Assembly (NCBI GenBank): GCA_035541795.1
Contig: DATKMR010000014.1
Span: 214,029 to 278,028, forward strand
DNA from: Bacteroidales bacterium
Lineage (GTDB): Bacteria > Bacteroidota > Bacteroidia > Bacteroidales > VadinHA17
Direction of reading: 5' to 3'
DNA: 64,000 nucleotides
Shown: piece by piece, positions 8,958-39,883 of the stretch
How positions within the stretch are numbered: position 1 is the first letter of the stretch
Layout: every line of letters starts with the position of its first letter
Program-made: the position numbers and the translations under genes
Notes under the pieces: generated by a model
What the model was told of the DNA's origin: nothing
The model's database searches: none
The model's input: only the letters and a program-made list of their open reading frames with translations

Positions 8958-10565
8958 ATGAAGGGGAATCATGCGTATATAATTGCACTGACTTTAGTTG
9001 CAACTCTTGGTGGATTACTGTTCGGCTACGACACCGCGGTTGTAAACGGTGCTGAAAAATCGCTGGTCGGGCTGTACATATCACCGATCCTGAATGAACC
9101 GGGCCACGATTATACAATAGAACTTATCAGTCAGTACAAGATAATATTGACTCTTGTAGTTTACCTGGTCTTCCTGGTAATATCGGGCCAGTTAGTACGT
9201 CTGCTGGGTGTTAACAAAGGTGGGGTATCCTCACTTGTTTTGATTGGCCTGGTCACTCTCTGGGCAGTAATGTTCCTCAGGAAATCCCTGGCTTTTGAAG
9301 GTGATGCGCTTAAGGATACTGCGGATATAATAAAGGGATTCGTGATTTCAAGCGCCCTCATTGGATGCATTATTGGCGGGGCGCTTGCCGGGTTCATCTC
9401 GAAATCTTTTGGAAGGAAGAAAGGACTGATGATTGCAGCTGCAGCATTCCTCATTTCAGCCATTGGTGCATGGAAGCCGGAGTCTTTGAATCTCTTTCCG
9501 GTACTGCCGGTATATTCGTTCTTCTTTTACAGGGTCATTGGCGGTATCGGTGTGGGTATCGCATCGATGATTTCCCCGATGTATATTGCTGAAATTGCAC
9601 CGGCATCAATGAGGGGCAAGCTTGTTTCGTGGAACCAGTTTGCAATAATCCTGGGAATGCTCGTGATCTACTTTGTCAATTATTTCATAGCACGCCGTGG
9701 CGATAGCGCCTGGCTTTTAAATGAGGGATGGAGATGGATGTTCCTCTCTGGTGCGATTCCCGCAGGAATTTTTTTAATTCTGCTCTTTTTTGTTCCTGAA
9801 ACACCCAGGTTTCTTGTGATGAAAGGACGTGACGACAAAGCACTTGCAATACTGAAAAGAATTGCCGGAGAAGCAGGCGGAAATGATATTCTTGAAGAGA
9901 TAAAAGGGACAATTCATGAGAAAAGTGCCCCCTGGCTCTCATTTGGATTTTTCGTGATACTGATCGGGATACTGCTTTCCGTATTTCAGCAGTTAGTCGG
10001 GATAAATGTGGTCCTGTACTATGCCGGTAATATCTTCAGGAATATGGGCGCTTCAACTGATTCTTCACTGCTGCAGACGATCATTGTAGGAGCTGTTAAC
10101 CTTACTTTCACCGTGGTTGCGATACTCACAGTTGACAGGATTGGAAGAAAGCCACTTATGATTATTGGAGCATCAGGCATGGCGCTGAGCATGATGGCAC
10201 TTGGTTTTTCATTTTATGCTCACCACGAAGGTGTGTCGGCATTGATTTTTATGCTGTTGTATGTTGCTTTCTTTGCGATGAGCTGGGGTCCCGTTACCTG
10301 GGTGTTACTTTCAGAAATATTTCCCAACAGTATCAGGGGGGCAATGTCTATTGCCGTGGCAGCACAGTGGGTCGCCGACTGGCTTGTATCCTTTACCTTT
10401 CCGGTCCTAAACGATAATCAAATGCTTACTGCCAGGTTCAACCATGGCTTTTCATACTGGCTCTATGGCATAATGGGAATTGTGGCCGCACTCCTGGTAT
10501 GGAAGCTGGTACCTGAAACCAAGGGAAAGACCCTCGAGGAAATGGAACGTCTGTGGAAAAGGTGA
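8958..10565 (+). CDS. MFS sugar porter family transporter
   Basis: Sugar-porter signatures GRKKGLMIAA, PETPRFL and PETKGKTLEEME, with about 12 TM helices and a long insertion after TM1. Confidence 0.9.
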   Translation: MKGNHAYIIALTLVATLGGLLFGYDTAVVNGAEKSLVGLYISPILNEPGHDYTIELISQYKIILTLVVYLVFLVISGQLVRLLGVNKGGVSSLVLIGLVTLWAVMFLRKSLAFEGDALKDTADIIKGFVISSALIGCIIGGALAGFISKSFGRKKGLMIAAAAFLISAIGAWKPESLNLFPVLPVYSFFFYRVIGGIGVGIASMISPMYIAEIAPASMRGKLVSWNQFAIILGMLVIYFVNYFIARRGDSAWLLNEGWRWMFLSGAIPAGIFLILLFFVPETPRFLVMKGRDDKALAILKRIAGEAGGNDILEEIKGTIHEKSAPWLSFGFFVILIGILLSVFQQLVGINVVLYYAGNIFRNMGASTDSSLLQTIIVGAVNLTFTVVAILTVDRIGRKPLMIIGASGMALSMMALGFSFYAHHEGVSALIFMLLYVAFFAMSWGPVTWVLLSEIFPNSIRGAMSIAVAAQWVADWLVSFTFPVLNDNQMLTARFNHGFSYWLYGIMGIVAALLVWKLVPETKGKTLEEMERLWKR

Positions 10566-10586
10566 GTATGGGATATCAGATGATTT

Positions 10587-11303
10587 TTACCCTCTCTTTT
10601 TGATCTCCTCGAGTAACCCGGGTTTTAATAGTATGATGTCTTTGTCGTGAAGTTCAATGATGCCGTCTTTTTCAAACGCTTTAAGCAGCTTTACCGCGCT
10701 CTCCATTGAAATTCCTGCAAAATCGGCAATGTCTTTTCTGCTTAGGTACTGGAATAAACTCTCATGTGATTTATTCAAACTATCTATATACAGCAAAGTC
10801 TCAGCAAGCCTTCCGTTCATCTGCCTGAAGAGCAATTTTCCCACCGTGTCAAGAAGGTTGGTGTTTTGCTCGCAGTATTTCCTGATTATTCCGTACGCGA
10901 ACATTGCATTCTGCTTGACAAGCGTCGCTATTGCATCTTTCTCAATAAGGTAGGCCTGGCAATCAGTCATGGCAACAGAGGAATAATTGAAAATATTAGT
11001 GTTAAATACGGCCGAGAGCCCAACAAACTCACCGGGAATGATAATCTTCAGATTAAAGTCCCTGTTCCCTTCCCCTTCAAGATACTGCCTTGCATATCCA
11101 TTGATAACAAATAAGATATAGGATGCAAAAGCTCCCTGCTTAGTAAGATTCTCACCTTTTCTGAAAAGGACCTGAGTTTTACTTCCCTTTACAAGATCCG
11201 CCTCTTCGTGTTGCAGATTCTGAAAGCACGGTGCTTTTATATCACAAAAAAAATCGTTATCTGCTTCCAGTATGGTCCTCATATATTCTGAATAATCCGA
11301 CAA
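10587..11303 (-). CDS. Crp/Fnr family transcriptional regulator
   Basis: 238 aa with an N-terminal cNMP-binding-like beta-barrel (FRKGENL...GE) and a C-terminal HTH (RKDIADFAGISMESAVKLLKAFEKDGII). Confidence 0.85.
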   Translation of the reverse strand: MSDYSEYMRTILEADNDFFCDIKAPCFQNLQHEEADLVKGSKTQVLFRKGENLTKQGAFASYILFVINGYARQYLEGEGNRDFNLKIIIPGEFVGLSAVFNTNIFNYSSVAMTDCQAYLIEKDAIATLVKQNAMFAYGIIRKYCEQNTNLLDTVGKLLFRQMNGRLAETLLYIDSLNKSHESLFQYLSRKDIADFAGISMESAVKLLKAFEKDGIIELHDKDIILLKPGLLEEIKKRG

Positions 11304-11428
11304 ATTTAATCTAAATCAATAAAAAAGTTGTTCTTTTTCAACCAGTCAATTATCATACATGAACAAGGAACCAGTAAATGCGCCGGATTTTGTATTTATT
11401 TTTGCTGCATAATTTTAAACTGAACAAA

Positions 11429-11785
11429 ATGTTGTACACAAATCTAAATCATCTGGAATCGGCATCTGATCATCAGAAGGCTGTTAACCAGAACGAAAAT
11501 GTAATGGTTATATGCGGAAGAATGGGTCCAATGTGCATACCTGTCTATGGCATTGCTGAAGAACTTGAAAAAGAATATAACCATGTCAAATTCTTCGATA
11601 TGGAATTTGATAATCCTGAATCTCATGTTATACGCAACCTTCCAGAAGTAAGAAACTTCATGGGTATTCCTTTTACAATTTACTATAAGAATGGCAAAGT
11701 AGTAAAAGCCACCTCAAGCATCCAGACGAAAGAGCAGGTAAGGACAATCCTCGATAAGGAGTTCTCTGCAACTGTGAATGTATAA
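11429..11785 (+). CDS. Thioredoxin-fold protein with an atypical active-site region
   Basis: Trx-like layout (VMVICGRMGPMCIPV....GIPFTIYYKNGK), but CGRMGPMC replaces WCGPC. ATG 11429 is preferred over the upstream start. The 3' end overlaps the next gene by 8 nt. Confidence 0.65.
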   Translation: MLYTNLNHLESASDHQKAVNQNENVMVICGRMGPMCIPVYGIAEELEKEYNHVKFFDMEFDNPESHVIRNLPEVRNFMGIPFTIYYKNGKVVKATSSIQTKEQVRTILDKEFSATVNV

Positions 11786-12749
11786 TGAAAAGGAGAAAAT
11801 GGATCATTTTGATGCTGTAATAATAGGCGCAGGACCGGCAGGTCTTACTGCAGGTATTTATCTCTCCAGGGCCAGGATGAAGACTCTCATTCTCGATGAA
11901 GGGATAACGGGAGGACAGATGGTGCTGACCCATGAGATTGCCAACTATCCAGGTGTTGAAAGCATCAGCGGGTTCCAGCTTGCCGGAATAATGAAAAAAC
12001 AGGCACTGGGATTCGGGTGTGAACTCAGGTCAAATATTTCAATAATTAGGATTGATCTTGAAAATAAAAGAAAGAAGATATCCCTCACAGACGGTTCTCA
12101 ATACTCGGCAGATTCGGTAATACTGGCTCCGGGCGGACGGCCAAGAACACTTGGTGTACCGGGTGAAAATGAGCTGAAAGGAAAGGGAATATCATATTGT
12201 GCCACCTGCGACGGCGATTTTTTTACCGGCAAGGAGATCATTGTGGTCGGCGGAGGAAATTCTGCACTTGAAGAAGCTGTATCGCTGACAAAATATGCGT
12301 CCAAAGTAACGGTTGTCCATCAGTTTGATCGCTTCCAGGCATTTGAGCACGCAATTGAAGAAGCCAGGAGCAATGCCAGGATAGATTTTATAATGGAATC
12401 AACTGTAGCAGGTTTTCATGGCTTTGAGAAGCTGGAAATGGCTGAAATCAAAAATCTCAGGACTGGAGAGATAACAAACAGGAGAATTGATGGCACATTT
12501 ATTTTCATCGGCTATATCCCCAACACGGAGTTCCTGGAAGGAATCATCAAACTGAACAGGAGAGGTGAAATTCCAGTCAGCGGGTCAGTGCAGACGGCCG
12601 TTGAAGGAGTTTATGCAGCTGGTGATTGTACAGCAAAACAGTACAGGCAGGTTACAACGGCTGTGGCGGACGGGACAATTGCAGCGCTTGCTGCATCAGA
12701 ATATGTCAACCAGATTAAAACATCGAGTAAAAAACTGATGGAGGCTTAA
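11778..12749 (+). CDS. Thioredoxin reductase-like flavoprotein (low-Mr TrxR family), probably not NADPH-dependent
   Basis: GAGPAG FAD motif, redox-active CATCDG and GGGNSALEEA. The HRRDxFRA NADPH 2'-phosphate motif reads HQFDRFQA here (encoded at 12318-12341). The true start may be MDHFDAV at 11799. Confidence 0.85.
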   Translation: MYNEKEKMDHFDAVIIGAGPAGLTAGIYLSRARMKTLILDEGITGGQMVLTHEIANYPGVESISGFQLAGIMKKQALGFGCELRSNISIIRIDLENKRKKISLTDGSQYSADSVILAPGGRPRTLGVPGENELKGKGISYCATCDGDFFTGKEIIVVGGGNSALEEAVSLTKYASKVTVVHQFDRFQAFEHAIEEARSNARIDFIMESTVAGFHGFEKLEMAEIKNLRTGEITNRRIDGTFIFIGYIPNTEFLEGIIKLNRRGEIPVSGSVQTAVEGVYAAGDCTAKQYRQVTTAVADGTIAALAASEYVNQIKTSSKKLMEA

Positions 12750-12750
12750 T

Positions 12751-13167
12751 ATGAAGATTACTTATATTATCGCAATTGTGGTGGTGTTTTTCGCCGGATA
12801 TTTCATTTACTCTTTCAGGAAAATGAAGAATATCCCCATGGTTGAGAACAGCGACAGGATATTGGAACTGACTGACAAGAATTTCCAGCTCCAGGTTAAG
12901 AGTAATATCACACTTGTCGATTTCTGGGCATCCTGGTGTGTACCATGCAAAATGATGGCACCGGTGCTGAATGAAGTTGCAGATGAAGTACCTGGTAATG
13001 TCAAGGTATGCAAGGTCAATGTTGAACAGTACCGGTCCCTGGCATCGAAATATTCGATTAGGGGAATCCCTACAATTGTTCTGTTCAGTGACGGGAAAGA
13101 AGTTGACAGGATAGTAGGTGTGAAAACCAAGGATTTTATCATTAACAGAATCAATAAAGTAAAATGA
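12751..13167 (+). CDS. Membrane-anchored thioredoxin
   Basis: An N-terminal TM helix (IIAIVVVFFAGYFIYSF) followed by a canonical Trx domain with WCVPC and GIPT. The stop overlaps the next start (ATGA at 13164-13167). Confidence 0.85.
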   Translation: MKITYIIAIVVVFFAGYFIYSFRKMKNIPMVENSDRILELTDKNFQLQVKSNITLVDFWASWCVPCKMMAPVLNEVADEVPGNVKVCKVNVEQYRSLASKYSIRGIPTIVLFSDGKEVDRIVGVKTKDFIINRINKVK

Positions 13168-14180
13168 CTGCAATTCTGATAGGTTTAGCATTTGGATCAA
13201 TACTCCGGTACGCGAAACTTAACCGTTTTGATACTATCAGCGGCCTGGCAATTCTCGGGGACCTCACGGTGGCAAAGGCATTAGCTGCAGCAGTCGGACT
13301 GGGAGCCATACTCGTGGCAGTTGAGACTGTTACCGGGCTTGGTTCATTCCATCTTAAACCCGTCATCCTTGGTGGATTGGTAATTGGAGGGATTGTATTT
13401 GGTACCGGGATGGCAATTCTGGGATATTGCCCGGGAACAATGGCTGTTTCTCTGGGTGAGGGATCAATAGATGCCCTGGCTGGCATAGCCGGAGGATTGG
13501 CAGGCGGGCTTGTTTACACGCTTTCATTCCCGGTTATTAAGAGCCTTGCAAACCCTGACCTGGGAAGCATTTCACTATTCAGCCTTCTGGGAAACAGCAG
13601 GCCTCTCTATTTGATAGCAACCCTGATCATCGGATCCTTGTTTATTGTGCTTGCTTTCAGATTGAAAGGCAGGGTGAACAATTCCGGGAAGAGATGGCTA
13701 TATGCTGGAATAGCCCTTGCAGCATTAAATGTGTTTGTTAATCTTTCATTTGTGGCTAACCATTTTATAGGTGCTTCAACTGCTTATCCAATGGTTGCCG
13801 ATTTTGTGACCGGTTTTACAGGTAATCCCTATTTTGAAAAGATAAAAGAACCCGGAACATGGGAACTGGAATTCCTTGGAGGAGCATTTCTTTCAGGACT
13901 TATTCTTTCAATTTCCAGTAAAGAATTCAGGATAACCACACTCCACAGTAACTGGATCAGGTTCAAAGGAAAGTCACCCCTGAACAGAATTTTATGGTCA
14001 TTTGCAGGTGGATTCCTGTTGCTCTTCGGCGCCAGGATGGCAGGTGGGTGCACAAGCGGACATATACTTTCAGGTGGGATGCAGCTTTCAGTCAGCAGCC
14101 TGGTATTCACAGTTTTTGTCTTTACTGGACTTGTTTTAACCGGGAAACTATTTTATAATCAGAAAGATGTAATTAAATAA
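13164..14180 (+). CDS. YeeE/YedE family sulfur-compound transporter (full-length, two-repeat form)
   Basis: 338 aa polytopic protein with the conserved Cys-containing motifs GYCPGT and GGCTSGH typical of YeeE/YedE. Confidence 0.85.
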   Translation: MTAILIGLAFGSILRYAKLNRFDTISGLAILGDLTVAKALAAAVGLGAILVAVETVTGLGSFHLKPVILGGLVIGGIVFGTGMAILGYCPGTMAVSLGEGSIDALAGIAGGLAGGLVYTLSFPVIKSLANPDLGSISLFSLLGNSRPLYLIATLIIGSLFIVLAFRLKGRVNNSGKRWLYAGIALAALNVFVNLSFVANHFIGASTAYPMVADFVTGFTGNPYFEKIKEPGTWELEFLGGAFLSGLILSISSKEFRITTLHSNWIRFKGKSPLNRILWSFAGGFLLLFGARMAGGCTSGHILSGGMQLSVSSLVFTVFVFTGLVLTGKLFYNQKDVIK

Positions 14181-14208: not shown

Positions 14209-14418
14209 ATGAAAAAGAACATGGGCAATCTCGACAGGATTCTGAGAGTTGTAGTTGCAATCGTAATTGCAGTTTTATTCTTCACAAAGGTTATAAGCGG
14301 AACATTGGGGATTATTCTCATGGTTATCGGAGGAGTATTCCTGCTAACAAGTATAATCAGCGTATGTCCCTTATATTACCCGTTTGGGATTAATACAAAA
14401 AAGAAAGAGGGAGCGTAG
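14209..14418 (+). CDS. DUF2892 (YgaP-like 2-TM) protein
   Basis: 69 aa. MGNLDRILRVVVA...two TM helices...CPLYYPFGINT matches the DUF2892 pattern as I remember it. Confidence 0.7.
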   Translation: MKKNMGNLDRILRVVVAIVIAVLFFTKVISGTLGIILMVIGGVFLLTSIISVCPLYYPFGINTKKKEGA

Positions 14419-14598: not shown

Positions 14599-14623
14599 AT
14601 GAACATTTGTTCATTATATTTGT
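14599..14623 (+). promoter_or_regulatory. Operator palindrome ATGAACA-TT-TGTTCAT fused to a TATATTTG -7 box (promoter of the DUF134-nifX-arsR operon)
   Basis: ATGAACATTTGTTCATTATATTTGT lies 14 nt upstream of ATG 14637. A 24/25 identical copy lies on the minus strand at 17924-17948. TATATTTG fits the Bacteroides -7 consensus TAnnTTTG. Confidence 0.55.
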
Positions 14624-14636: not shown

Positions 14637-15032
14637 ATGTCCCGGAATAAAAAGGACAGGTTGGTTCAGAAGGCGCCTAGTTTTTTCGGATTTAAGCCAC
14701 TTGGTCTCCAGGGTAAGCAATCAGAGGCGGTGATTCTTGGATTTGAGGAATACGAAGCCTTGAATCTGTGTGATTATGAGCTTCTAAAGCAGGCCGAAGC
14801 TGCCCTTTTGATGAATATCTCCAGACCCACCTTTACAAGAATTTATGAAAGTGCCAGGCGAAAAGTCGCAAGGGCCCTGGTTGAAGGAAAGCCCATTCGG
14901 TTTGCAAACGGGAACTCGTCAGTTGCTGAATGGTACATCTGTAACAGCTGTCGCATCAGTTTTACTCTGGCAGGGAAGGGAACACTTTGTTGTCCGGTTT
15001 GCAAATCCGGTGATATAATTCTTAACACATGA
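14637..15032 (+). CDS. DUF134 family putative DNA-binding protein with a C-terminal CxxC...CxxC zinc ribbon
   Basis: KAPSFFGFKPLG....VILGFEEYEALNLCDYELLKQAEAALLMNISRPTFTRIYESARRKVARALVEGK matches the DUF134 (sigma-70 region-4-like HTH) pattern. The tail reads CNSC...CCPVC. ATG 14637 is preferred over TTG 14607. Confidence 0.75.
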   Translation: MSRNKKDRLVQKAPSFFGFKPLGLQGKQSEAVILGFEEYEALNLCDYELLKQAEAALLMNISRPTFTRIYESARRKVARALVEGKPIRFANGNSSVAEWYICNSCRISFTLAGKGTLCCPVCKSGDIILNT

Positions 15033-15036
15033 TGTG

Positions 15037-15348
15037 ATGATTGTTGCAATTGCAGCCTCCGAAAACCACAAGAAATCCGTAATCGATTTGCATTTTGGAA
15101 GATGTGAATGGTATTGCCTTTTTAATTCAATCACAGGTGATCTAGAATTTATTGAGAATTCATTCAGATTTAAAAAGGATCAGGCTGGCCTTGATGCCGC
15201 TAAAATGCTTATAGCCAGGGGAGCTGGTATAATTGTGGCTGGACGTTTCGGGGCTAAGGTCATGGAAGTCCTTCGTGAAAACAACATTCAGATGGTTGTT
15301 CCGCAAACACGGCAGGATATTTCGAAGTTCTTAAATTCATTCAGATGA
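15037..15348 (+). CDS. NifB/NifX-type (dinitrogenase FeMo-cofactor-binding domain) protein
   Basis: IVAIAAS.....VIDLHFGRCEWYCLF...GAGIIVAGRFGAKV is typical of the small NifX/NifB C-terminal domain family. The start is GTG 15034 or ATG 15037. Confidence 0.75.
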   Translation: MIVAIAASENHKKSVIDLHFGRCEWYCLFNSITGDLEFIENSFRFKKDQAGLDAAKMLIARGAGIIVAGRFGAKVMEVLRENNIQMVVPQTRQDISKFLNSFR

Positions 15349-15686
15349 ATCAGTTAACAGAAAATTCTTATCCCAATTCTTTACCGGAAGTGAATGAATA
15401 CGAGAAATTCAGCGAAACACTCAAGGCACTATCTCATCCGGTAAGGTTGAAAATAATGCAGCTGCTGCTGAGCGACAAGATTTGTGTCAACGAAATTGTA
15501 AAAAGGCTGGACGTACCTCAATCAATTATCTCCCAGCATCTTTCAATTCTAAGAAACAGGGGGATATTAGTCAGGCAAAAAAAGGGTACCAGAACATGGT
15601 ACATGATCAGTGATGACCTGGCAATGGTAATTACAAATTTTCTGAACGGGAGGGATGAATCACGTTATAAACTGAAAAGTTACTGA
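15345..15686 (+). CDS. ArsR/SmtB family transcriptional regulator
   Basis: Winged HTH LKALSHPVRLKIMQLLLSDKICVNEIVKRLDVPQSIISQHLSILRNRGIL. It has a single Cys and no alpha-5 His/Asp metal-site pattern. The start overlaps the preceding stop (ATGA). Confidence 0.85.
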   Translation: MNQLTENSYPNSLPEVNEYEKFSETLKALSHPVRLKIMQLLLSDKICVNEIVKRLDVPQSIISQHLSILRNRGILVRQKKGTRTWYMISDDLAMVITNFLNGRDESRYKLKSY

Positions 15687-15690: not shown

Positions 15691-17466
15691 TCAGTGTGCC
15701 GGATCCGGTAACGTGGTCATCAGACCGGCTTTATCCCTTACCAGCTTAATTATTCCAGCGATTATTAGCTCCTCGTTTTCTGCGGAAATATCAAAAATAT
15801 ATACATTTCCGGTATTCCATTTCCTGGTAACACGGTCTAAAAGCTTCTTTCTGACAACCCACAGCTGAGTAACCGTCGAATATAAACATAATCTCTCTAT
15901 TGCATGATACCATCCTTTCCCGCTAAGCTCAAGCGGGCCAATCTCATCAATTACAATAAGCTGCTTATCCTTTGAGTTTTCAGGGTCAAGAATATGGGAG
16001 CCTGTATTTATGGTTTCGGGATTGAAAGAATATTTTCCTGTTTTTATACCATAACCTCTGCCTTCTGTTGAGCATAATTCGTATTGCTCAGCAGTATCGA
16101 TGTCATATAGCCTGAATCCAACCCTTCCCTTATCATTGTTTACTCCCGGTGACAAAAATCCTCCAACCCGGAAATTTTCTTCTTTCAGGCGCAAAACTGT
16201 CTTGTTGGCCAGTGTTGTCTTCCCCTGGTGGATCTCTCCGGTTATAATAATAATTTCCGGCCTTTTAAAGTGTTCCTTTTTAAATAAGTCAAGCAGGATA
16301 TCAGCCTTGCTGAGAAGACCCTTTAAAGAACTGCGAGAAATGCCGGAAGCGCTATTTTCTTTCCGTTCAGATAAACTGGACAGGAGAAAAGGGAGTGCGG
16401 AAAATGCAAGATCCAGCGACTGGTAAACCGATTCTAACCCATTGCGAAATAATATCGATTTGATTACCGGGTTCTTTAGTTCAATGCTGATGGCTGAGAA
16501 TCCAAGAACAAGGATTACCGCCCTGGCATTCATCTTTAAACCAACCAGTAACCCTGGCATACTGAAATATTCCCCGGTGGAAACTCCTTCCCATAAAAAT
16601 GCCGCGCAGAATGTAATTATTATAAAACTCAGCCAGAATTTAATCTTCAGCAGTCTTCTTATTGACCTGCTGTATTTTAAATAGCTGAAAAGAACATAGC
16701 AAATTCCTGCAAGTACAGCCGCGATTGTAAGATCTGAATTGATTAGGGTAAGTGTTCCTGTAATAAATAAGATATTTACTGTCAGCAGGATAAGTGAGTA
16801 CTTTTCGCCTGGAGCCGGGCCCTTCTTTATCCTGTTCCCTGACTGGAAGTTAAAGTCCAATTCCTGATCCCGACTGGAATCTTCTTTTGAGAATCCCCTT
16901 CCTGAGAGATAACCTGAAATAGCGCCGGCAATTCCTATAGCCGAATAGAACAGGACAATGATCAGCAAAACCATTAAAGGACTTACGCCGCGGATACTGA
17001 TCTGTTTTGAAACAAAATGATAGAGGTCAGTAACTATCTTCACCAGGTCGAAGCCGTACAGAATTAGCAGGTTGACTGTTTTTTGAATCAGTGTGCTCAG
17101 TACTGCAAAGATGCCGCCAATGATATAACCGAGAAGGTTCCTGCCAAAGATAAATATGAAAACCTGCATCAGGATTGCCTCTGCAAGTATGCCAATCATT
17201 GGCCCAAGGATTATTGCACTCGGCGATACAGCTTTCATCATGGCACATATAAGCCCTGACCTCCAGACAAGACCAGGTTCTTTCCAAACCTGAAGAAATG
17301 AAACGATCAGCCATACACTAATGAATGACAGAATCAAACCTGTAAAAGGGATTTTCAGGTTATGCAGGAAACTTCCCAGGACAATCTCCACCGAGGCCCA
17401 GATTGATCCTGTAACAGCCGATTTAAGCCATATTTCTTTTAAAGGTCTTGATGGTACAAGCTGCAT
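15691..17466 (-). CDS. Fusion protein: polytopic membrane domain (about 400 aa) plus C-terminal P-loop NTPase (THEP1/DUF2478-like)
   Basis: About 10 hydrophobic helices, then IIIITGEIHQGKTT (Walker A) and LIVIDEIGPLE (Walker B). The size and order resemble the NTPase_1/DUF2478 family as I remember it. Confidence 0.7.
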   Translation of the reverse strand: MQLVPSRPLKEIWLKSAVTGSIWASVEIVLGSFLHNLKIPFTGLILSFISVWLIVSFLQVWKEPGLVWRSGLICAMMKAVSPSAIILGPMIGILAEAILMQVFIFIFGRNLLGYIIGGIFAVLSTLIQKTVNLLILYGFDLVKIVTDLYHFVSKQISIRGVSPLMVLLIIVLFYSAIGIAGAISGYLSGRGFSKEDSSRDQELDFNFQSGNRIKKGPAPGEKYSLILLTVNILFITGTLTLINSDLTIAAVLAGICYVLFSYLKYSRSIRRLLKIKFWLSFIIITFCAAFLWEGVSTGEYFSMPGLLVGLKMNARAVILVLGFSAISIELKNPVIKSILFRNGLESVYQSLDLAFSALPFLLSSLSERKENSASGISRSSLKGLLSKADILLDLFKKEHFKRPEIIIITGEIHQGKTTLANKTVLRLKEENFRVGGFLSPGVNNDKGRVGFRLYDIDTAEQYELCSTEGRGYGIKTGKYSFNPETINTGSHILDPENSKDKQLIVIDEIGPLELSGKGWYHAIERLCLYSTVTQLWVVRKKLLDRVTRKWNTGNVYIFDISAENEELIIAGIIKLVRDKAGLMTTLPDPAH

Positions 17467-17489
17467 TCAGAATCAGAGTCAATTATTGT

Positions 17490-17873
17490 TTAACCGTGAT
17501 GACATGTATGTTCTCCGGGTGAATGGGAATGGTGATGATCGCATGTACTTCCGCTGTCTTCAACCGAGCCTTCGATGTATTTTCTGACTACTTCTTCCGC
17601 CCTGCCGGAACAGCCTTTTATGACTTCAATACCATTATTATTCAGAACATTGACTGCACCGACACCTATTCCGCCGGCAAGCATTACACTGACTCCAAAA
17701 GAAGCAAGCCGGGGTGCAATATCAGATTTACATCCGCATCCGGCGGGCGATTTAATCGTATTTACTTCCACAATCTCATTGGTTTCGGAGAGCGAATATA
17801 CTGCATAGGAATCACAATGACCGAAATGCGTATCCACCAGTTTGTCGTAGGTTACGGGAACTGCTATTTTCAT
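17490..17873 (-). CDS. NifB/NifX-type domain protein with a His/Cys-rich C-terminal tail
   Basis: MKIAVPV....HFGHCDSYAVY...GVSVMLAGGIGVGAV is the NifX-like core. The tail reads CDHHHSHSPGEHTCHHG. Confidence 0.75.
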   Translation of the reverse strand: MKIAVPVTYDKLVDTHFGHCDSYAVYSLSETNEIVEVNTIKSPAGCGCKSDIAPRLASFGVSVMLAGGIGVGAVNVLNNNGIEVIKGCSGRAEEVVRKYIEGSVEDSGSTCDHHHSHSPGEHTCHHG

Positions 17874-17923: not shown

Positions 17924-17948
17924 ACAAATATAATGAACATATGTTCAT
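17924..17948 (-). promoter_or_regulatory. Second copy of the operator plus -7 box module (promoter of the nifX-His / membrane-NTPase operon)
   Basis: The minus strand reads ATGAACATATGTTCATTATATTTGT, with a perfect 16-bp palindrome ATGAACATATGTTCAT at 17933-17948. It lies 50 nt upstream of the start at 17873. Confidence 0.55.
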
Positions 17949-18267: not shown

Positions 18268-20505
18268 ATGACAAACAGGAGACAATTTATTAAGATTTCG
18301 GTGGCCGGAGCAGGATTTATGGCAACAGGTGCCGGTACAATGAAGGCCATGGAATTGATCTCTCAGCCGGGGAATACCGGCAGCCTGAATCTTGATCTAA
18401 AGAGAACCCCTACCTATTGTGAGGTTTGTTTCTGGAAATGCGCTGGCTGGGTATATAAAAAATCCAACGGAAAAATCTGGAAGATAATTGGGAATGACCA
18501 GGACCAGCATTGTAACGGCAGGCTGTGCCCGAGGGGAACCGGAGGTGTCGGAATGTATAATGATAACGAGAGATTAAGGACACCGCTGCTAAGGACAGCA
18601 GAAAGGGGAAAACAAATTTTCAGGGAAGCAACCTGGGATGAAGCTTTTGACTACATCGCGGGAAGGATGAAGGAAATATCAGTAAAATACGGGCCATCTT
18701 CAATGGCTCTGTTCACTCATGGTTCCGGGAGCTCATATTTTACAACACTTCTTAAAGCTTATGGCTCCGAGAATATTGCGGAACCATCTTATGCCCAGTG
18801 CAGGGGACCGAGGGATGATGCCTTTTTTGCAACCTTTGGCGAGGAAGCCTATTCTCCTGAAATAACTGACATAAGGAATACAAAGTGCCTTGTTCTCATT
18901 GGGTCACACATAGGAGAAAATATGCATAACGGTCAGATACAGGAAATGTCCGATGCCATTGATAACGGAGCTACGATAATTACTGTTGACCCAAGATTTT
19001 CAACTGCTGCAGGCAAATCGAAGTACTGGCTGCCGATTAAGCCATCGACAGACATCGCGCTGCTGCTGGCCTGGATGCACGAGATTATATATAATGAATA
19101 CTACGATAAAAAGTATGTGGATAAATATTGCACGGGGTTTGATCAGTTAAGGGAACATGTGAAAAATTTCACTGCTGAGTGGGCTTATGGAATAACAACA
19201 ATCAGTCCCGACAAAATCAAACGTACAGCCAAAGAAATGGCAAGCGCAGCACCTGCAGTCATAGTTCATCCGGGACGCCATGTAACCTGGTATGGCGATG
19301 ATACCCAGAGAATCAGGGCTATTGCAATACTAAATGCCTTACTGGGTTCGTGGGGTCGAAGGGGGGGATTCTACAGGCCATCAAAAGCATCGGTGCCAGG
19401 ATATAAATTGCCTGGATTTCCAAAACCATCCAGGACATGGCAGGATGCTTTTCCCGGCAAGTTTCCGATAGCCAGTTCGCCGGTTTCAAATGTGCTCATC
19501 GATGCCTCGATCCCGGAAAATAATCCGGGTTATCTGGTAAAGGGATGGATTGTAAACGGCACTAACCTTATCTCGACTATTCCTAACCAGGCAAATACAA
19601 TAAAAGCTATTCAGAATCTGGAACTACTGGTTGCAATTGACACAATGCCCATGGAGATAACTGGTTGGGCTGATGTTGTATTACCTGAATGCACATATCT
19701 TGAAAGGTATGACAGCCTGAGAATCAGCCCGCACAGGAAACCTTCCATCGCTTTAAGAATGCAATCGACTGAACCTTTGAATCAAACCAGGCCGGGTTAC
19801 TGGATTGCCAGGCAATTATCATTGAAGCTTGGGCTTGAAAGCTATTTTCCGTTTGAAAAACAGGAAGATTTGCTCGACTGGCAGTTAAAACAGGTTAAGT
19901 CATCGCTTGAGGAAATGCAAAGTCTTGGGGTTAAAAACTTTGAAAGGGAAGCCGATGACCTGTACTTTGCAGAGGATGAAAATGTGCAATTTCCTACTGA
20001 TTCAGGCAGGATAGAGCTGTTCTCAAAATCTCTTGAAGCCGCAGGTTTTGATGCAATGCCAAAATATACTGCTCATGAGGAGCCACAGGACGGCTATTAC
20101 AGGCTTATCTATGGCAGGGCACCAATGCATACTTTCAGCAGAACATCAAATAACCCCAATCTCACGGACCTTATGCATGAGAACAGCGTCTGGATTAACC
20201 CAAAAGTCGCGAAGGAATGGAGTCTTGTCACTGGACAGTATATATGGCTTAAGAATCAGGATGGAGTCACTACCGATTTTCCAATAAAAGTGAGGGTCAC
20301 TGAAAGAATTAGGTGGGATTCGGTTTATATGGTCCATGGATTCGGGCATAAGCAAAAACAAATGAAGAGATGCTTCGGAAAGGGGGCGAGCGATACACAA
20401 ATGATAACAAAAGTTCTTTACGATCCGCTGATGGGCGGAACCGGAATGAGATCGAATTTTGTAACGTTTGTAACAGAGAATGCAGGGAAGGAGGTATCAT
20501 TATGA
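18268..20505 (+). CDS. Tat-exported molybdopterin (bis-MGD) oxidoreductase catalytic subunit, PsrA/PhsA-like
   Basis: Tat leader MTNRRQFIKISVAGAGFMATGAG, an N-terminal FeS motif CEVCFWKC...C....C, and DMSO-reductase-family length and motifs. The stop overlaps the next start (ATGA 20502-20505). Confidence 0.9.
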   Translation: MTNRRQFIKISVAGAGFMATGAGTMKAMELISQPGNTGSLNLDLKRTPTYCEVCFWKCAGWVYKKSNGKIWKIIGNDQDQHCNGRLCPRGTGGVGMYNDNERLRTPLLRTAERGKQIFREATWDEAFDYIAGRMKEISVKYGPSSMALFTHGSGSSYFTTLLKAYGSENIAEPSYAQCRGPRDDAFFATFGEEAYSPEITDIRNTKCLVLIGSHIGENMHNGQIQEMSDAIDNGATIITVDPRFSTAAGKSKYWLPIKPSTDIALLLAWMHEIIYNEYYDKKYVDKYCTGFDQLREHVKNFTAEWAYGITTISPDKIKRTAKEMASAAPAVIVHPGRHVTWYGDDTQRIRAIAILNALLGSWGRRGGFYRPSKASVPGYKLPGFPKPSRTWQDAFPGKFPIASSPVSNVLIDASIPENNPGYLVKGWIVNGTNLISTIPNQANTIKAIQNLELLVAIDTMPMEITGWADVVLPECTYLERYDSLRISPHRKPSIALRMQSTEPLNQTRPGYWIARQLSLKLGLESYFPFEKQEDLLDWQLKQVKSSLEEMQSLGVKNFEREADDLYFAEDENVQFPTDSGRIELFSKSLEAAGFDAMPKYTAHEEPQDGYYRLIYGRAPMHTFSRTSNNPNLTDLMHENSVWINPKVAKEWSLVTGQYIWLKNQDGVTTDFPIKVRVTERIRWDSVYMVHGFGHKQKQMKRCFGKGASDTQMITKVLYDPLMGGTGMRSNFVTFVTENAGKEVSL

Positions 20506-21035
20506 GATATGCAATGGCAGTTGATACCAGGAAATGTGTGGGATGCAGCGATTGTGTTGTAGCCTGCCAGACTGAAAACAATGTACCATCAGGATTCAGC
20601 CGCGACTGGGTGGTGGAGAGGCTTAACGGGACGTATCCCCAGCTTGAAATTGAATTAAGATCGGAAAGATGCAACCATTGTAATAATGCTCCTTGTGTCC
20701 GTTGCTGCCCGACGGGAGCAAGTCATTTTGCTGAAGGTGGAATTATTCTCGTTAATCATTCAAAATGCATCGGCTGTGGAGCTTGTATTTCTGCCTGCCC
20801 TTATGATGCAAGGTACCCGCATCCCGATGGCTATGTCGATAAATGCACATTCTGTAACCATCGCCTTAAAAATGGGCTTAGCACCGCATGCGCTGATGTT
20901 TGTCCGACAAAATGCATCTACTTTGGCGATTTGGATGACCCTAACAGTTCAGTAACCATGATCCTGAAGCGGAGGAAGTATAAGACACTTATTCCTGAAG
21001 CAGGTACAGATCCGAGACTCTATTTTCTCATTTAA
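20502..21035 (+). CDS. 4Fe-4S ferredoxin-type electron-transfer subunit, PsrB/PhsB-like
   Basis: Four Cys clusters (CVGCSDCVVAC, CNHCNNAPCVRCC, CIGCGACISAC, CTFC....C..VC). I take the start at MRYAMAVD; the track's upstream extension from 20370 overlaps psrA. Confidence 0.9.
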   Translation: MRYAMAVDTRKCVGCSDCVVACQTENNVPSGFSRDWVVERLNGTYPQLEIELRSERCNHCNNAPCVRCCPTGASHFAEGGIILVNHSKCIGCGACISACPYDARYPHPDGYVDKCTFCNHRLKNGLSTACADVCPTKCIYFGDLDDPNSSVTMILKRRKYKTLIPEAGTDPRLYFLI

Positions 21036-21056: not shown

Positions 21057-21998
21057 ATGAACGAAGAATTAATAGTCAGTGGCAGAAATAACCTGATGGT
21101 GGACCCGCACCTTAACATCTGGCACTGGCCAATTCCTCTCTATCTCTTTCTCGGTGGAATGGCTGCTGGGATACTGGCAATAGCAGCCATATATTATATC
21201 AGGGGAAGAGAGGAGGATTACAAAGCTGCTGTGAGGATTACTCCGATGCTGGCTCCTTTTCTGCTTGTTCTCGGACTGCTTGCATTGTTTCTGGACCTCA
21301 GGCACAAAGCCTATTTCTGGCAATTGTATGTGAATATTAAGCTGCAGTCACCCATGTCGTGGGGTGCCTGGGTACTGATGGTAATCACCCCCGTCTCATT
21401 TATATGGGCAGCGTTGCACATAAGGGAACTGTTCCCAAGATGGGACTGGAAATACAGTGTGCTTTACTCTGTCGAAAAGTTCTTCATCAGGTATAAGAAA
21501 ATACTGGCCTGGGTTATGCTGATTTACGCATTAGTACTAGGTATCTATACAGGAATTTTGTTATCAGCATTCAATGCACGGCCGTTCTGGAACACTTCAA
21601 TTCTGGGGCCCTTATTCCTGGCATCCGGACTTTCGGCAGGTGCCGCTGCAACCCTGATAATATCAAAAAATACTGATGAAAGAAAACAGTTCGCGAGGAT
21701 AGACCTCGTACTGATAGGGATTGAATTATTCCTGATCATTCACATGTTTATGGGATTCCTGGCAAGTACACAGGTTCAGATTGATGCGGCTAACATGTTC
21801 CTCGGTGGCCCTTATACTACAGTGTTCTGGATATTTGTTGTTATCATGGGAATGCTAATCCCTGCATTGCTTGAAGTTCTGGAATTAAGGAAATACCACA
21901 TTCCTGCTATTTTGCCGGCAATACTTGTAATCTTCGGCAGTTTCATGCTGAGATTCATTATAGTATTTGCAGGTCAGGCAAGCCGGTGGCTATATTGA
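21057..21998 (+). CDS. NrfD/PsrC-type quinol-interacting membrane subunit
   Basis: 313 aa with about 8 TM helices, in the typical position after the A and B subunits. Confidence 0.85.
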   Translation: MNEELIVSGRNNLMVDPHLNIWHWPIPLYLFLGGMAAGILAIAAIYYIRGREEDYKAAVRITPMLAPFLLVLGLLALFLDLRHKAYFWQLYVNIKLQSPMSWGAWVLMVITPVSFIWAALHIRELFPRWDWKYSVLYSVEKFFIRYKKILAWVMLIYALVLGIYTGILLSAFNARPFWNTSILGPLFLASGLSAGAAATLIISKNTDERKQFARIDLVLIGIELFLIIHMFMGFLASTQVQIDAANMFLGGPYTTVFWIFVVIMGMLIPALLEVLELRKYHIPAILPAILVIFGSFMLRFIIVFAGQASRWLY

Positions 21999-22039
21999 AA
22001 ATCACTGATCGGGAAAATTATTTTATAATAAACCTAAAT

Positions 22040-22561
22040 ATGGAAGTTAAGAAAATAAAATACCTTAATCCCTATGTAGGAGGGGTATTATTAGGTCTGG
22101 TCTTGCTGGCTGCCAATTTTGTTTCGGGCAGAGGGCTTGGGGCAAGCGGTGCAATTAAAAGCGTGGTTGTAACCACCATGACGACGGTAGCTCCGCATGC
22201 GGGAGAAAACTCGGGATTTGTCAGGGAATTCCACCAGTCCCATCAGGGAAACCCGATGAAAACCTGGCTGGTATTCGAAATGCTTGGAGTTCTTGTTGGT
22301 GGATTTCTTTCAGGGACATTAGCAGGAAGACTTAAATTCAAAGTTGAGCATTCACCGAAAATAACCTCAGGAAGAAGGCTTGTCCTTGCTCTGGGAGGCG
22401 GTGTTCTATTTGGATTCGGATCCCAGCTGGGGAGAGGCTGTACCAGCGGATCAGCCCTCAGCGGAATGGCAGTGCTTTCACTTGGGGGATTTATTACAAT
22501 GATGGCAATATTCGGCACGGCCTTTGCCTTCGCATATTTCTTCAGAAAAAACTGGATTTAA
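22040..22561 (+). CDS. YeeE/YedE family protein (half-size, first of a split pair)
   Basis: GRGCTSGSALSG motif and 4 TM helices. ATG 22040 is preferred over the upstream start. Confidence 0.8.
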   Translation: MEVKKIKYLNPYVGGVLLGLVLLAANFVSGRGLGASGAIKSVVVTTMTTVAPHAGENSGFVREFHQSHQGNPMKTWLVFEMLGVLVGGFLSGTLAGRLKFKVEHSPKITSGRRLVLALGGGVLFGFGSQLGRGCTSGSALSGMAVLSLGGFITMMAIFGTAFAFAYFFRKNWI

Positions 22562-22574
22562 AAATAAATTGAAT

Positions 22575-23165
22575 ATGGGACCACTAGTTGCAAATGATAT
22601 AATATCAGAAAACACGAACCTGTTTCTGGCTTTTATTATAGGTATCGGGTTTGGTTTTGTTCTTGAGCAAAGCGGATTTTCTTCCAGTAAAAAGCTGGCC
22701 GGGGTTTTTTATGGATATGATACGGTAGTATTAAAAGTGTTCTTTACAGCTGCAATTACAGGAATGTTAGGTTTGCTTTTTTTCAGCCTCTTCGGTTGGA
22801 TTGACCTTAGCTCGGTTTACATCAACCCGACGTACCTGCCTTCTGCCATCCTTGGCGGCGTTATTATGGGGTTAGGCTTTATAATGGGTGGCTATTGCCC
22901 CGGCACAAGTTTTTGTGGAGCATCAATCGGTAAAATAGATGCCCTGGTTTTCATCGGGGGACTCTTTATCGGTGTATTTATCTTTGGTTTGGGATATAAA
23001 CTCTGGGAAGGCATCTATATGGCAAAGTTCATGGGCTCACCTAAAGTAAGTTCAGTTCTGGGTTTGTCCGACGGACTTTTTGCACTCCTGCTGATTATCG
23101 TTGCCCTGGTAATGTTCAGGGTCGCAGAGTGGGCTGAAAAAAAATACCCTGTTGAAGATTATTAG
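22575..23165 (+). CDS. YeeE/YedE family protein (half-size, second of a split pair)
   Basis: GGYCPGTSFCG motif and polytopic topology. ATG 22575 is preferred. Confidence 0.8.
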   Translation: MGPLVANDIISENTNLFLAFIIGIGFGFVLEQSGFSSSKKLAGVFYGYDTVVLKVFFTAAITGMLGLLFFSLFGWIDLSSVYINPTYLPSAILGGVIMGLGFIMGGYCPGTSFCGASIGKIDALVFIGGLFIGVFIFGLGYKLWEGIYMAKFMGSPKVSSVLGLSDGLFALLLIIVALVMFRVAEWAEKKYPVEDY

Positions 23166-23182
23166 AATTTAAAAATCATACT

Positions 23183-23806
23183 ATGAAACCACGTACATTA
23201 CTGGCATTATTTCTGATCCCTCTTGGACTTGTGATTGCTGCCGTGCCGCAGAATACAACCAGGCCTTATAAGCTGACTGCAGACCAGCTTCTTTCAGAAG
23301 TTAAAACCAGGACTCAGTATATTGCGCCTGAAACCGTTGCCGATATGCTTGTAAAGAAGGATCCGACTCTCAGGTTGGTTGATGTCAGGAGCCAGGATGA
23401 ATTTGAGAAATTCAGCCTTCCCGGGGCGGTTAATGTTCCTATACCTGACTTGTTAAATGACAAGTATACTGAGATTCTGAATCAGGATTCAAAGATGAAC
23501 GTCTTTTACTCCAACGGTACGATTACTGCAAATGAGGCATGGATGGTGACCCGTCAGTTGGGATATAAGAATAACTTTGTACTTGAAGGCGGACTCAACT
23601 ACTGGTTTGATGCAATTATGAATCCTCAGAAACCTGTATCTACAAGTGCGGATGAGGAGTTTGCAAAGTATGATTTCAGAAAGAGTGCCGGACAGGCCCT
23701 GGGCGGAGGAGGTGTGATTCAGGCTGAAAAGACACAGCCCGGTGCTGCTTCAAAGCCGACTGTAACGGCCGGGCCTAAGAAAAAGAAGGTAGCAGGCGGA
23801 TGTTGA
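23183..23806 (+). CDS. Membrane/periplasm-targeted rhodanese-homology-domain protein lacking the active-site Cys, with a Gly/Pro/Lys-rich tail ending in GGC
   Basis: N-terminal hydrophobic signal or anchor. The rhodanese pattern LVDVRSQDEFEKFSLPGAVNVP....VFYSNGTITANEAW...LEGGLNYW has Ser where the catalytic Cys sits. The only Cys in the protein is its last residue. Confidence 0.75.
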   Translation: MKPRTLLALFLIPLGLVIAAVPQNTTRPYKLTADQLLSEVKTRTQYIAPETVADMLVKKDPTLRLVDVRSQDEFEKFSLPGAVNVPIPDLLNDKYTEILNQDSKMNVFYSNGTITANEAWMVTRQLGYKNNFVLEGGLNYWFDAIMNPQKPVSTSADEEFAKYDFRKSAGQALGGGGVIQAEKTQPGAASKPTVTAGPKKKKVAGGC

Positions 23807-23819: not shown

Positions 23820-24410
23820 ATGTACGAGAACTTTTCAGGAATTATTCTGGCGGGCGGAGAAAACAAGAGATTTGACGGCATAATCAAATCTCTTTCTTAT
23901 ATTGATGGCAAACAGATTGTTAAAAGGATTATTCTGGTGTTGGAGCAATTGTTTCCTGAAATAATCATAGTAACAAATTTACCCGGGGAGTTCAGGGAAT
24001 TTTCCCGGTTTAAAATCGTAAGTGATAAGATCATTGGTAAGGGCCCTTTGGGTGGAATACACGCGGGTCTGGAGGCTGCTGCAAATGAGCTTTGTTTCGT
24101 TATTGCAGGTGACATGCCTTTCCCCGACAGGGATATCATTAAGGGTATGATAGATGAATTCTCTGATTCAGAACCTGAGTTGCTCATCCCGAAATTAGGA
24201 TCGGGAATTGAACCTTTGCACTCTATTTGGCAGCGTAAGATCAATCAGAAGCTAGAATCTTTCCTGCTTTCAGGAGACAGGAATGCAGTGCGGGATTTTA
24301 TAAAAACGGCGGATATTAAATATTATGAAATTCAGGAATCCGAATCAGCCAGAATTGCTTTTACCAATATCAATTACCTGAAAGATATTGTTTCACCGCA
24401 TAAATTTTAA
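23820..24410 (+). CDS. mobA: Molybdenum cofactor guanylyltransferase
   Basis: GIILAGGENKRF..., GPLGGIHAGL and AGDMPF motifs are typical of MobA. Confidence 0.8.
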   Translation: MYENFSGIILAGGENKRFDGIIKSLSYIDGKQIVKRIILVLEQLFPEIIIVTNLPGEFREFSRFKIVSDKIIGKGPLGGIHAGLEAAANELCFVIAGDMPFPDRDIIKGMIDEFSDSEPELLIPKLGSGIEPLHSIWQRKINQKLESFLLSGDRNAVRDFIKTADIKYYEIQESESARIAFTNINYLKDIVSPHKF

Positions 24411-25704: not shown

Positions 25705-26424
25705 CATCGGAACGTTCCGGACCTCATTTCTGGCAAAACAGCGCTCCTGATGCAAAAATCCATTGGAATATCTCCAGCGGGGGAGGTGTATAACTTAAAG
25801 TCCCCTGGGATTCCAGTAGGTTAGTAGCTTTTAGAGGTTCCTGCCGAAGCTAGTAATCCTTTATTCTACAACTATTTCACTGCTGAGGGAATCTGAACTG
25901 AGAATTCCCGAAAGGCAATCCAGCCTCACTCATTATTTAAAATTGTCAATTTGACAAATCGCTTCCCGCACACAAAACCGGAATAGTCGTCTTCGTCAGA
26001 CCAAATCGGCGGGCATGAAGTTTGGGTTAATTGGCTTTGCCGGGCTCACCGCCAAGGGCGGTTCGGTTCACTGGTGCTTGCACCGGAAAGGAGTCCAGAG
26101 CTTCCGCGAGAGCTGTAGCCACTCTGCGGAAGCTCTGCTCTAGGGTTCAAACCTGTTGATTGCCTGGGTTTGATTTATTATTACGAAAATAAAACATGCA
26201 ATGGGAATTTTTGGGAACAAATGGGAATTCTTTGAACTGGTTTTATTAAGCTATTTCTTGTTCGAGCTTAAAAATCTGAAGGTTAGTAAACATAATGGTT
26301 CATTAACCAAATTGACACGGTTGACTTTAAATGTTTCATGGTTTATTTTTGTTAATGTCAAGTCTTGAATGTCTTAGGTCAATATTCGCTTCCATTTCAA
26401 TATAATTCCTTTCGTATATTAACT

Positions 26425-28660: not shown

Positions 28661-28681
28661 TCGCATTTTAACCACTATATA

Positions 28682-30164: not shown

Positions 30165-30165
30165 T

Positions 30166-35990: not shown

Positions 35991-35995
35991 TTTTG

Positions 35996-39881: not shown

Positions 39882-39883
39882 TT

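Follow-up and report, generated by a model that had tools for sequence, protein, structure and literature searches.

Energy-coupling factor (ECF) importers bind their substrate through an S-component, which topples across the membrane and works with a second membrane protein (EcfT, of the CbiQ family) and two ATP-binding cassette (ABC) ATPases (EcfA and EcfA′); CbiMNQO and NikMNQO are metal ECF systems, and solitary S-components such as BioY are able to work without an ECF module. Enzymes of the THEP1 family of nucleoside triphosphatases (NTPases) have low and non-specific NTPase activity. Here we analyse a gene pair in a 64,000-nucleotide stretch of DNA from a Bacteroidales bacterium (hereafter the window) that encodes a 127-residue NifX-like protein and a 591-residue protein in which a membrane part of likely ECF ancestry is fused to a THEP1-type NTPase domain. 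Because ABC ATPases and docking motifs, two defining features of ECF transporters, are absent, the 591-residue module is not a member of that family, although an ECF transporter is the known system that it would work most like. We tentatively suggest that it derives from an ECF importer and takes up or hands over a metal or cofactor in a nucleoside triphosphate (NTP)-dependent manner, the most likely cargo being molybdenum or tungsten (Mo/W) or a molybdopterin-type cofactor or precursor.

Membrane part of likely ECF ancestry

An AlphaFold model of residues 1–400, built on 48 sequences (pLDDT 85, pTM 0.83), contains a six-helix bundle (residues 11–195), a linker (196–224) and four more transmembrane (TM) helices (225–330), after which two amphipathic helices (345–367 and 379–399) lead into the NTPase domain. 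The secondary structure of the model and hydropathy together give about ten TM helices arranged as six plus four, and the charge distribution fits an N-in, C-in topology in which the NTPase is predicted to be cytosolic. The linker (residues ~196–224) is modelled at a pLDDT of 52–64, varies in length and sequence among relatives and carries five Lys/Arg residues. An earlier annotation made from the letters of the window (hereafter the original prediction) had described about ten TM helices followed by a C-terminal P-loop NTPase, and the model, hydropathy and Pfam all agree with that description.

Neither Pfam nor NCBIfam contains a model that matches residues 1–400, even when the two halves were searched separately against Pfam at E ≤ 10, and a profile search of the membrane part against PDB sequences gave no family assignment. 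By structural comparison, we consider the ECF S-component 5edl to be the only genuine PDB fold match of the membrane-only model (Foldseek probability 1.00, TMt 0.56, root-mean-square deviation (rmsd) 5.1 Å over 198 columns that take in all 197 residues of 5edl). As the Foldseek output reports no aligned query range, the match was assigned by size and helix count to the N-terminal half, the only one with six helices and a fitting length. The similarity to S-components is thus one of fold, with no sequence model matching the N-terminal half. A major facilitator superfamily (MFS) or other permease fold was rejected: the best Foldseek E-values did belong to MFS proteins, but with TM-scores of 0.13–0.21 and an rmsd of ~20 Å these are noise.

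For the C-terminal half, three lines of similarity to EcfT were obtained, each of them below threshold. Weak Pfam matches to CbiQ (PF02361) occur in 2 of 76 diverse family members (best E = 0.0055), the protein of the window itself giving none. An hhalign comparison with 122 real EcfT sequences (taken from PDB and the protein database, a synthetic consensus having served only as bait for their retrieval) reached E = 2.3e-4 (probability 44%) over 119 columns, co-linear with EcfT positions 44–180 of 277, against E = 0.028 for reversed EcfT and 0.018 for the N-terminal half as controls; in this alignment the most conserved motifs of the family (KPxxW, GLxxGxxMxxRA and AFxALP) fall on motifs of EcfT itself, with AFxALP on ALRFIPTL. 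Finally, a hidden Markov model (HMM) of EcfT, made from 120 database EcfTs and two PDB fragments, gave 11 of 388 family members a better score than any reversed control reached (2.9e-4 versus 0.02), and its matches nearly always place EcfT positions ~15–40 to 115–177 on family residues ~206–250 to 310–374, that is, co-linearly on the C-terminal half. The docking region of EcfT (the AQxARG and AMEARG ends of the coupling helices) has no counterpart, given that the alignment stops at about position 180 of 277 and the chain runs on into the NTPase. Judged from these profiles, the C-terminal half is a probable truncated homologue of EcfT that is devoid of the ATPase-docking coupling-helix ends. 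Because the weak EcfT lines for the C-terminal half combine with an S-like fold in the same chain, ECF ancestry of the membrane part is likely.

Several residues are invariant within the family (E27, H35 and E96 in the N-terminal half; R315, F323 and P359 in the C-terminal half) and others nearly so (N36, K78, S81-P82-S83, P89 and M90). In the predicted structure, the outer ends of TM1, TM3 and TM4 carry H35, N36, S81-P82-S83 and P89-M90, and E27, E96 and K78 lie inside the membrane; a polar route for the substrate is suggested by the invariant residues E27, H35, E96 and R315.

The module thus shares with ECF transporters (YkoEDC with the S-component 5edl, CbiMNQO, and the FolT and PdxU EcfAA′T complexes 4huq and 4hzu) a small six-helix S-like bundle, a second membrane part with sub-threshold, co-linear similarity to TM1–TM4 of EcfT and its ALRFIPTL motif, a cytoplasmic P-loop NTPase partner and a link to cofactor or metal supply. 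Unlike them, it joins its S-like and T-like parts into a single chain, lacks the distal part of EcfT that bears the Ala-Arg-Gly coupling-helix ends, carries one THEP1-type domain in place of EcfA/EcfA′, matches no Pfam or NCBIfam ECF model and comes from Bacteroidota. The original prediction had seen here a permease-like class that it did not recognise. This stands in so far as no family library describes the architecture, but the membrane part is no longer without a likeness, as it looks like an S-component of the ECF type to which a truncated EcfT is joined. This likeness touches a condition that the original prediction had set against itself, namely a match of the membrane part to a well-characterised family whose NTPase partner is known; the finding nevertheless holds, because EcfA/EcfA′ and their docking region are absent and THEP1 stands in their stead.

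A THEP1-family NTPase domain

Residues 406–571 match the Pfam family NTPase_1/THEP1 (PF03266; E = 7e-28, 98 bits against a cut-off of 23.9) and, weakly, DUF2478 (E = 6e-6), and score 100 bits against the 156 of the NCBIfam equivalog for the stand-alone NTPase (PRK13695). Across 42 homologues, seven residues of the Walker A (GEIHQGKTT) and Walker B (VIDEIGPLE) motifs do not vary (G410, G415, K416, D507, E508, G510 and E513). Among solved structures the domain has only two relatives, THEP1 of Aquifex aeolicus (1ye8) and human NTPCR (2i3b), which phmmer recovered from the PDB sequences at E = 2.8e-6 and E = 5.7e-5, respectively; 2i3b was also found by Foldseek (TMt 0.69, probability 1.00). An ABC-type ATPase was rejected, given that Pfam assigns the domain to NTPase_1, the PDB relatives are THEP1 and NTPCR only, and the ABC matches are noise. 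In this respect the original prediction of a non-ABC, THEP1/DUF2478-like NTPase is borne out, with DUF2478 as the weaker of its two names. On the strength of motifs and profiles, we regard the NTPase as a bona fide THEP1-family domain, in a membrane context that is unprecedented: it shares family, Walker motifs and fold with 1ye8 and 2i3b, whereas the known members are small and soluble and this one is fused to, or encoded beside, a ten-TM protein in ~79 of 81 informative loci.

Distribution and fusion of the module

A search with the full-length protein returned 944 homologues, and the 120 matches listed are all 574–596 residues long and, apart from the query itself, 51–57% identical to it; a protein that is 100% identical is encoded on a 529-kb contig of a Bacteroidales metagenome-assembled genome. 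The membrane part alone matched 960 cluster representatives among 1.8 billion, in fused (~570–590 residues) and stand-alone (~385–410 residues) forms. With one genome scanned per species, the membrane domain was found in at least 583 species genomes, almost all of uncultured Bacteroidota, with carriers in Bacteroidales, Lentimicrobiaceae, Prolixibacteraceae, Salinivirgaceae, Saprospiraceae and Rikenellaceae. Proteins of the family are annotated only as ‘nucleoside-triphosphatase’ or ‘hypothetical protein’, with no domain model, and neither the family libraries nor our literature searches (on THEP1/DUF2478, fused ECF S and T parts, and uptake of molybdenum cofactor (Moco)) yielded an earlier description of this architecture.

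The arrangement of the NTPase was compared across 87 loci (designated by L numbers). It is fused to the membrane part in ~65–69 of them and encoded by a separate gene in ten, immediately upstream of the membrane gene in six and immediately downstream in four; two loci with full flanks (L008 and L069) have no NTPase within 7–8 kb, and six are too truncated to judge. Since some lineages fuse the two parts and others encode them in neighbouring genes, with the NTPase on one side or the other, they appear to form a functional pair. A chance fusion or assembly artefact, which the original prediction had named as a possible refutation, is ruled out by the hundreds of full-length homologues (120 of the 120 listed), the identical protein on independent contigs and the split but linked genes of 10 of the 87 loci.

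The same survey bears on the possibility that the NTPase serves only for regulation or sensing on a secondary, ion-coupled carrier or a channel, or that the membrane part is itself a sensor, with no energy coupling of the ECF type. The two loci that are devoid of a nearby NTPase would suit such a role, as would the ability of BioY and other solitary S-components to act alone and the low, non-specific activity of THEP1 enzymes. The fusion or adjacency in nearly all informative loci and the invariant catalytic motifs argue instead for an obligatory and catalytically competent partner, and we consider this reading very improbable.

Gene neighbourhood and the molybdenum link

The fusion gene lies 23 nucleotides (nt) downstream of the NifX-like gene on the same strand (Table 1), and the layout of both open reading frames (ORFs) is as originally read. 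In 12 other loci the NifX-like gene likewise lies no more than 300 nt upstream of the module, so that the operon first proposed is a conserved operon of anaerobic Bacteroidota. A Psr/Phs-type operon is transcribed divergently from it, the PsrA protein of which carries a twin-arginine signal (RRQFIK); its molybdoenzyme and mobA, noted at the outset as neighbours, were both confirmed by family searches. The division of YeeE into two halves seen in this operon is also found in L001.

Table 1 Features of the gene pair and its surroundings in the window
Feature	Position	Strand	Basis or remark
127-residue NifX-domain (Nitro_FeMo-Co) protein gene	17873-17490	minus	ORF and Pfam
591-residue membrane/THEP1 fusion protein gene	17466-15691	minus	ORF and Pfam
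Six-TM S-component-like bundle (residues 1–196 of fusion protein)	16879-17466	minus	Foldseek, AlphaFold model
Cytoplasmic linker (residues 197–224)	16795-16878	minus	Low pLDDT, variable alignment
Four TM and two amphipathic helices (residues 225–400), probable truncated EcfT (CbiQ-family) homologue	16267-16794	minus	hhalign, EcfT HMM
THEP1/NTPCR-type P-loop NTPase domain (residues 401–591 and stop)	15691-16266	minus	PF03266, phmmer, Foldseek
Operator–promoter block, copy 1	17925-17948	minus	~52 nt upstream of NifX-like start codon
Operator–promoter block, copy 2	14599-14622	plus	Before DUF134/NifX-like (104 residues)/ArsR operon (14637-15686)
Psr/Phs-type molybdopterin oxidoreductase with Tat signal	18268-20505	plus	Pfam/NCBIfam
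4Fe-4S subunit	20502-21035	plus	
NrfD anchor	21057-21998	plus	
YeeE/Sulf_transp in two halves (188 and 196 residues), then rhodanese	21995-23806	plus	
Rhodanese, membrane-anchored, sequence end ...AGGC	23183-23806	plus	
MobA	23820-24410	plus	

The Psr gene set stands beside the module in L001, L008, L016, L042, L043, L065, L067 and L071. Counting all Psr-type operons within 8 kb, 12 loci in addition to the window have one, and in L008, L042, L043 and L071 the module lies inside the operon and in the same direction. By tblastn, 11 loci have a MobA-like gene no more than 700 nt from the module, and a Pfam census places such genes at 14 neighbour positions; all ten that were tested matched MobA models best (E = 1e-30 to 1e-42), and their products are 187–218 residues long. 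Their order varies (THEP1–MobA–membrane, MobA–fusion and fusion–MobA) across both split and fused clades, and in L006 and L008 the MobA gene overlaps the membrane gene. Other recurrent neighbours are XdhC (three), TorD/NarJ-like proteins (two, and one in the window), FmdE (three) and thioredoxin genes. ABC_tran is not among the 25 commonest families of either neighbour census, and an ABC ATPase stands near the module in only a few loci (for example, L007).

Probes for MoaA–E, MoeA/B and ModA–C of Escherichia coli, run on the window and 91 loci (flanks totalling 1.23 Mb, not whole genomes), gave only generic radical-SAM and ABC similarity, the ModC matches being of the generic ABC-ATPase kind at 27–29% identity, and no moa, moe or mod genes lie in the window at ~18–57 kb. 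Neighbours such as MobA, XdhC, TorD and Psr in the absence of Moa, Moe and Mod link the module to the late stages of cofactor handling and to the molybdoenzyme rather than to regulation of Mo uptake or to early synthesis. The role in metal or cofactor trafficking that the original prediction had thought plausible is better supported by these recurrent and sometimes overlapping mobA genes and Psr-type operons. With the ModABC, TupABC and WtpABC transporters the module possibly shares a purpose (that is, Mo/W supply to molybdoenzymes); it differs in having neither a periplasmic binding protein nor an ABC ATPase, and its sequence does not resemble theirs, the ModA and ModB probes having found nothing in the flanks.

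This linkage could also be read without transport. The module might be a membrane-anchored platform for late maturation and insertion of Moco, in which THEP1 acts as a MobB-like adaptor for MobA, and synthesis of bis-molybdopterin guanine dinucleotide and cofactor insertion are tethered near the twin-arginine translocation (Tat) apparatus that exports PsrA. The THEP1–MobA–membrane order of L006 and L065, with MobA adjacent or overlapping, fits this, as do adjacent MobA-like proteins that are too short to include a MobB domain, the company of late handlers of Moco (MobA, XdhC and TorD-like proteins) and never of Moa, Moe or Mod, and the twin-arginine signal of PsrA. An anchor would, however, have no need of ten TM helices, of invariant intramembrane Glu, His and Arg residues or of an S-component-like fold; no MobB model is among the Pfam matches of the 591-residue protein at E ≤ 0.01; and most loci have no MobA nearby. 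The module resembles MobA/MobB, XdhC and TorD/NarJ systems in that these are its recurrent immediate neighbours, a MobB-like role of THEP1 being conjectural for a domain outside the MobB family. To our knowledge, no membrane component is known in Moco maturation. On balance such a platform seems unlikely.

The NifX-like partner

The 127-residue protein belongs to the Nitro_FeMo-Co family (PF02579/IPR003731; E = 5e-21, 75 bits against a Pfam cut-off of 26.3) and ends in ...CDHHHSHSPGEHTCHHG, a Cys/His-rich tail of about 20 residues. Across ten loci the partners are 60–67% identical and keep the tail pattern C-x2-H...GHxCxH together with HFGHC and GCGC motifs, so that the NifX-type protein with a metal-binding tail of the original prediction is upheld in its domain and its conserved tail, with metal binding itself predicted. 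Members of the family bind and transfer inorganic metal–sulfur species: non-Nif members of IPR003731 bind inorganic Fe–S species in sulfur-respiring anaerobes, and IssA, which has this domain, stores Fe–S as thioferrate in sulfur-respiring Pyrococcus (PMC5524996). NifX/NafY and IssA thus share the Nitro_FeMo-Co domain with the partner. The partner differs from NifX in scoring 20 bits against the 112 of the NifX equivalog (TIGR02663, NCBIfam) and in having no nif genes around it in the annotated parts of the window (~5.7–57 kb). From IssA it differs in its Cys/His-rich tail, the long, cationic, Gly-/aromatic-rich disordered tail described for IssA (PMC5524996) not being present, and relative to both it has extra HFGHC and GCGC motifs. 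We propose that the NifX-like protein is a cytoplasmic metal or cluster acceptor.

The partner belongs to a second gene context that is confined to the window’s own clade and comprises NifX-like genes (12 loci), DUF134, a SAM methyltransferase (13 loci), OsmC, thioredoxin and thioredoxin reductase; membrane domains of this clade are 47–57% identical to that of the window, versus 39–48% in MobA-linked loci. The recurrent methyltransferase (~210 residues) has only sub-threshold matches (BioC, UbiG, the DVU_1556 family, TehB and ArsM). This context raises the alternative that the cargo is another transition metal (Ni, Co, Zn or Fe) or an Fe–S, metal-sulfide or chalcogen species tied to sulfur respiration, taken up or else exported for detoxification, with the NifX-like protein as its chaperone or store and the link to MobA a secondary effect of co-regulation with Psr. 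In its favour are the conserved His/Cys tail, HFGHC and GCGC of the partner, the precedent of thioferrate storage by IssA (PMC5524996), and an ArsR/SmtB-family regulator in the regulon, as well as neighbours that include thioredoxin, thioredoxin reductase, AhpC, OsmC, DsrE2/DsrC, rhodanese, YeeE, ArsR, cation-efflux proteins, ArsP and a TehB/ArsM-like methyltransferase. It would leave unexplained the translationally coupled MobA of distant fused and split clades and the XdhC and TorD-like neighbours, the tail of the partner is unlike the cationic Gly-rich tail of IssA, and the NifX/thioredoxin/methyltransferase context is restricted to a single clade. That metal ECF systems exist (CbiMNQO and NikMNQO) lends it some further plausibility. 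Taken together, we find this alternative doubtful.

Sub-threshold NCBIfam matches to models of selenoprotein systems (the TsoR regulator, TsoB rhodanese/DsbD, an OsmC-related (seleno)protein, MduS methyltransferase and the DVU_1551/1556 families) were also recorded, at 15345-15686 and 23183-23806 in the window, at 7101-7490 in L005 and at 6080-6733 in L003, which hints at a sulfur/selenium-related gene set around the module. In L004, the genes for thioredoxin and thioredoxin reductase that follow the module on its downstream side (9724-11407) are broken into ORFs of 39–150 residues and represent either pseudogenes or assembly frameshifts.

A shared operator

The operator described in the original prediction is confirmed as an exact 24-nt block, ATGAACATNTGTTCATTATATTTG, present before both the NifX-like/fusion operon and the DUF134/NifX-like/ArsR operon on which the fusion module converges, with none of 100 shuffles giving any match. 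Within the block (17925-17948), the perfect palindrome ATGAACATATGTTCAT abuts TAtaTTTG, which we take to be a −7 box of the Bacteroidetes type. The core TGAACAnnTGTTCA occurs twice upstream of DUF134–NifX in L004 (15851-15895), where there is no ArsR gene; this weakens the case for ArsR as sole owner of the operator. Because the palindrome of L004 has no ArsR gene nearby, DUF134 has as strong a claim as ArsR to be the repressor, or a stronger one, and it may be the cognate one. The DUF134 protein of the window (14637-15032) has a C-terminal CxxC...CxxC extension that resembles a zinc ribbon (CNSC...CPVC), the first pair of which gives a weak NCBIfam match to an IS1/IS1595 Zn-binding domain.

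The fusion gene (stop at 15691, minus strand) and the ArsR gene (end at 15686, plus strand) converge with 4 nt between them. As this gap leaves no space for a terminator, antisense read-through or interference between the operons is possible.

Proposed mechanism

We infer transport as such, its direction, its cargo and a coupling role of the NTPase from the observed architecture, fold and profile similarities, fusion and fission of the genes, conservation and linkage. If the module behaves as ECF importers do, its S-like bundle would capture the cargo on the outer face and then topple against the T-like scaffold, a movement that the flexible linker of ~28 residues would permit. The amphipathic helices at residues 345–399 may replace the coupling helices of EcfT and relay nucleotide-dependent changes from the THEP1 domain, where binding or hydrolysis of NTP would drive or gate the uptake of a scarce metal or metal cofactor. 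The cargo might then be handed to cytoplasmic MobA and, in the window’s clade, to the Cys/His-rich NifX-like protein, with the neighbouring Tat-exported Psr/Phs-type molybdoenzyme as its presumed end user. Either DUF134 or ArsR of the divergent regulon may repress the operon through the shared palindromic operator.

The identity of the cargo is the weakest step of this proposal. A species related to Mo/W or a pterin cofactor is the candidate to which we give a guarded preference; another metal or a metal–sulfur species has a minor share of our confidence, and a role other than transport has a similar one. The strongest form of the proposal, in which the module would represent a new class of primary transporter (that is, a THEP1-powered S/T module that imports Moco or a molybdopterin precursor and hands it to MobA), we regard as improbable.

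Other features of the window and its relatives

Further sulfur- and redox-related genes lie near the module. An operon at 11378-14180 encodes an unknown protein of 118–135 residues, thioredoxin reductase, thioredoxin and a full-length YeeE/Sulf_transp protein (338 residues); it is flanked by a gene for a Crp/Fnr regulator (10587-11303), and another Crp/Fnr gene (24484-25161) stands at the end of the Psr operon. Taken as a whole, the region at 10–25 kb looks like one sulfur/redox regulon. A YgaP-like TM protein of 67–69 residues adjoins DUF134, thioredoxin and module genes in three genomes (14209-14418 in the window, 9785-9994 in L003 and 16000-16203 in L004).

Beyond the Psr operon, the stretch at ~26000-36000 has a low GC content (0.38–0.39 versus 0.42–0.48 elsewhere) and encodes patatin, DUF2971, FRG, an LCAT/PGAP1-like lipase, an astacin-like protein and several ORFs without a family, and could represent a defence-type island or one gained by horizontal transfer. 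Further on, 36177-40558 encodes DUF362, DUF6599, a second thioredoxin-reductase-like flavoprotein, AHSA1 and a TorD/NarJ-type chaperone (39884-40558, minus strand), the last of which may serve PsrA from a distance of ~20 kb to the Psr operon.

Implications

This work defines a protein family that is present in at least 583 species genomes. If the proposed uptake or hand-off system is correct, ECF S/T machinery would be drivable by a motor that is not a pair of ABC ATPases, which bears on how toppling is energised, and the NTPases of the THEP1/NTPCR family, which range from bacteria to humans, would gain their first cellular context. The idea that anaerobes scavenge Mo/W or a ready-made pterin cofactor is thereby made testable; should import of Moco be true, the module would be the first bacterial system for Moco salvage and would provide the first physiological role for the THEP1/NTPCR family. 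For the abundant Bacteroidota of sediments, groundwater and bioreactors, it would supply a missing step in equipping their sulfur-respiring molybdoenzymes.

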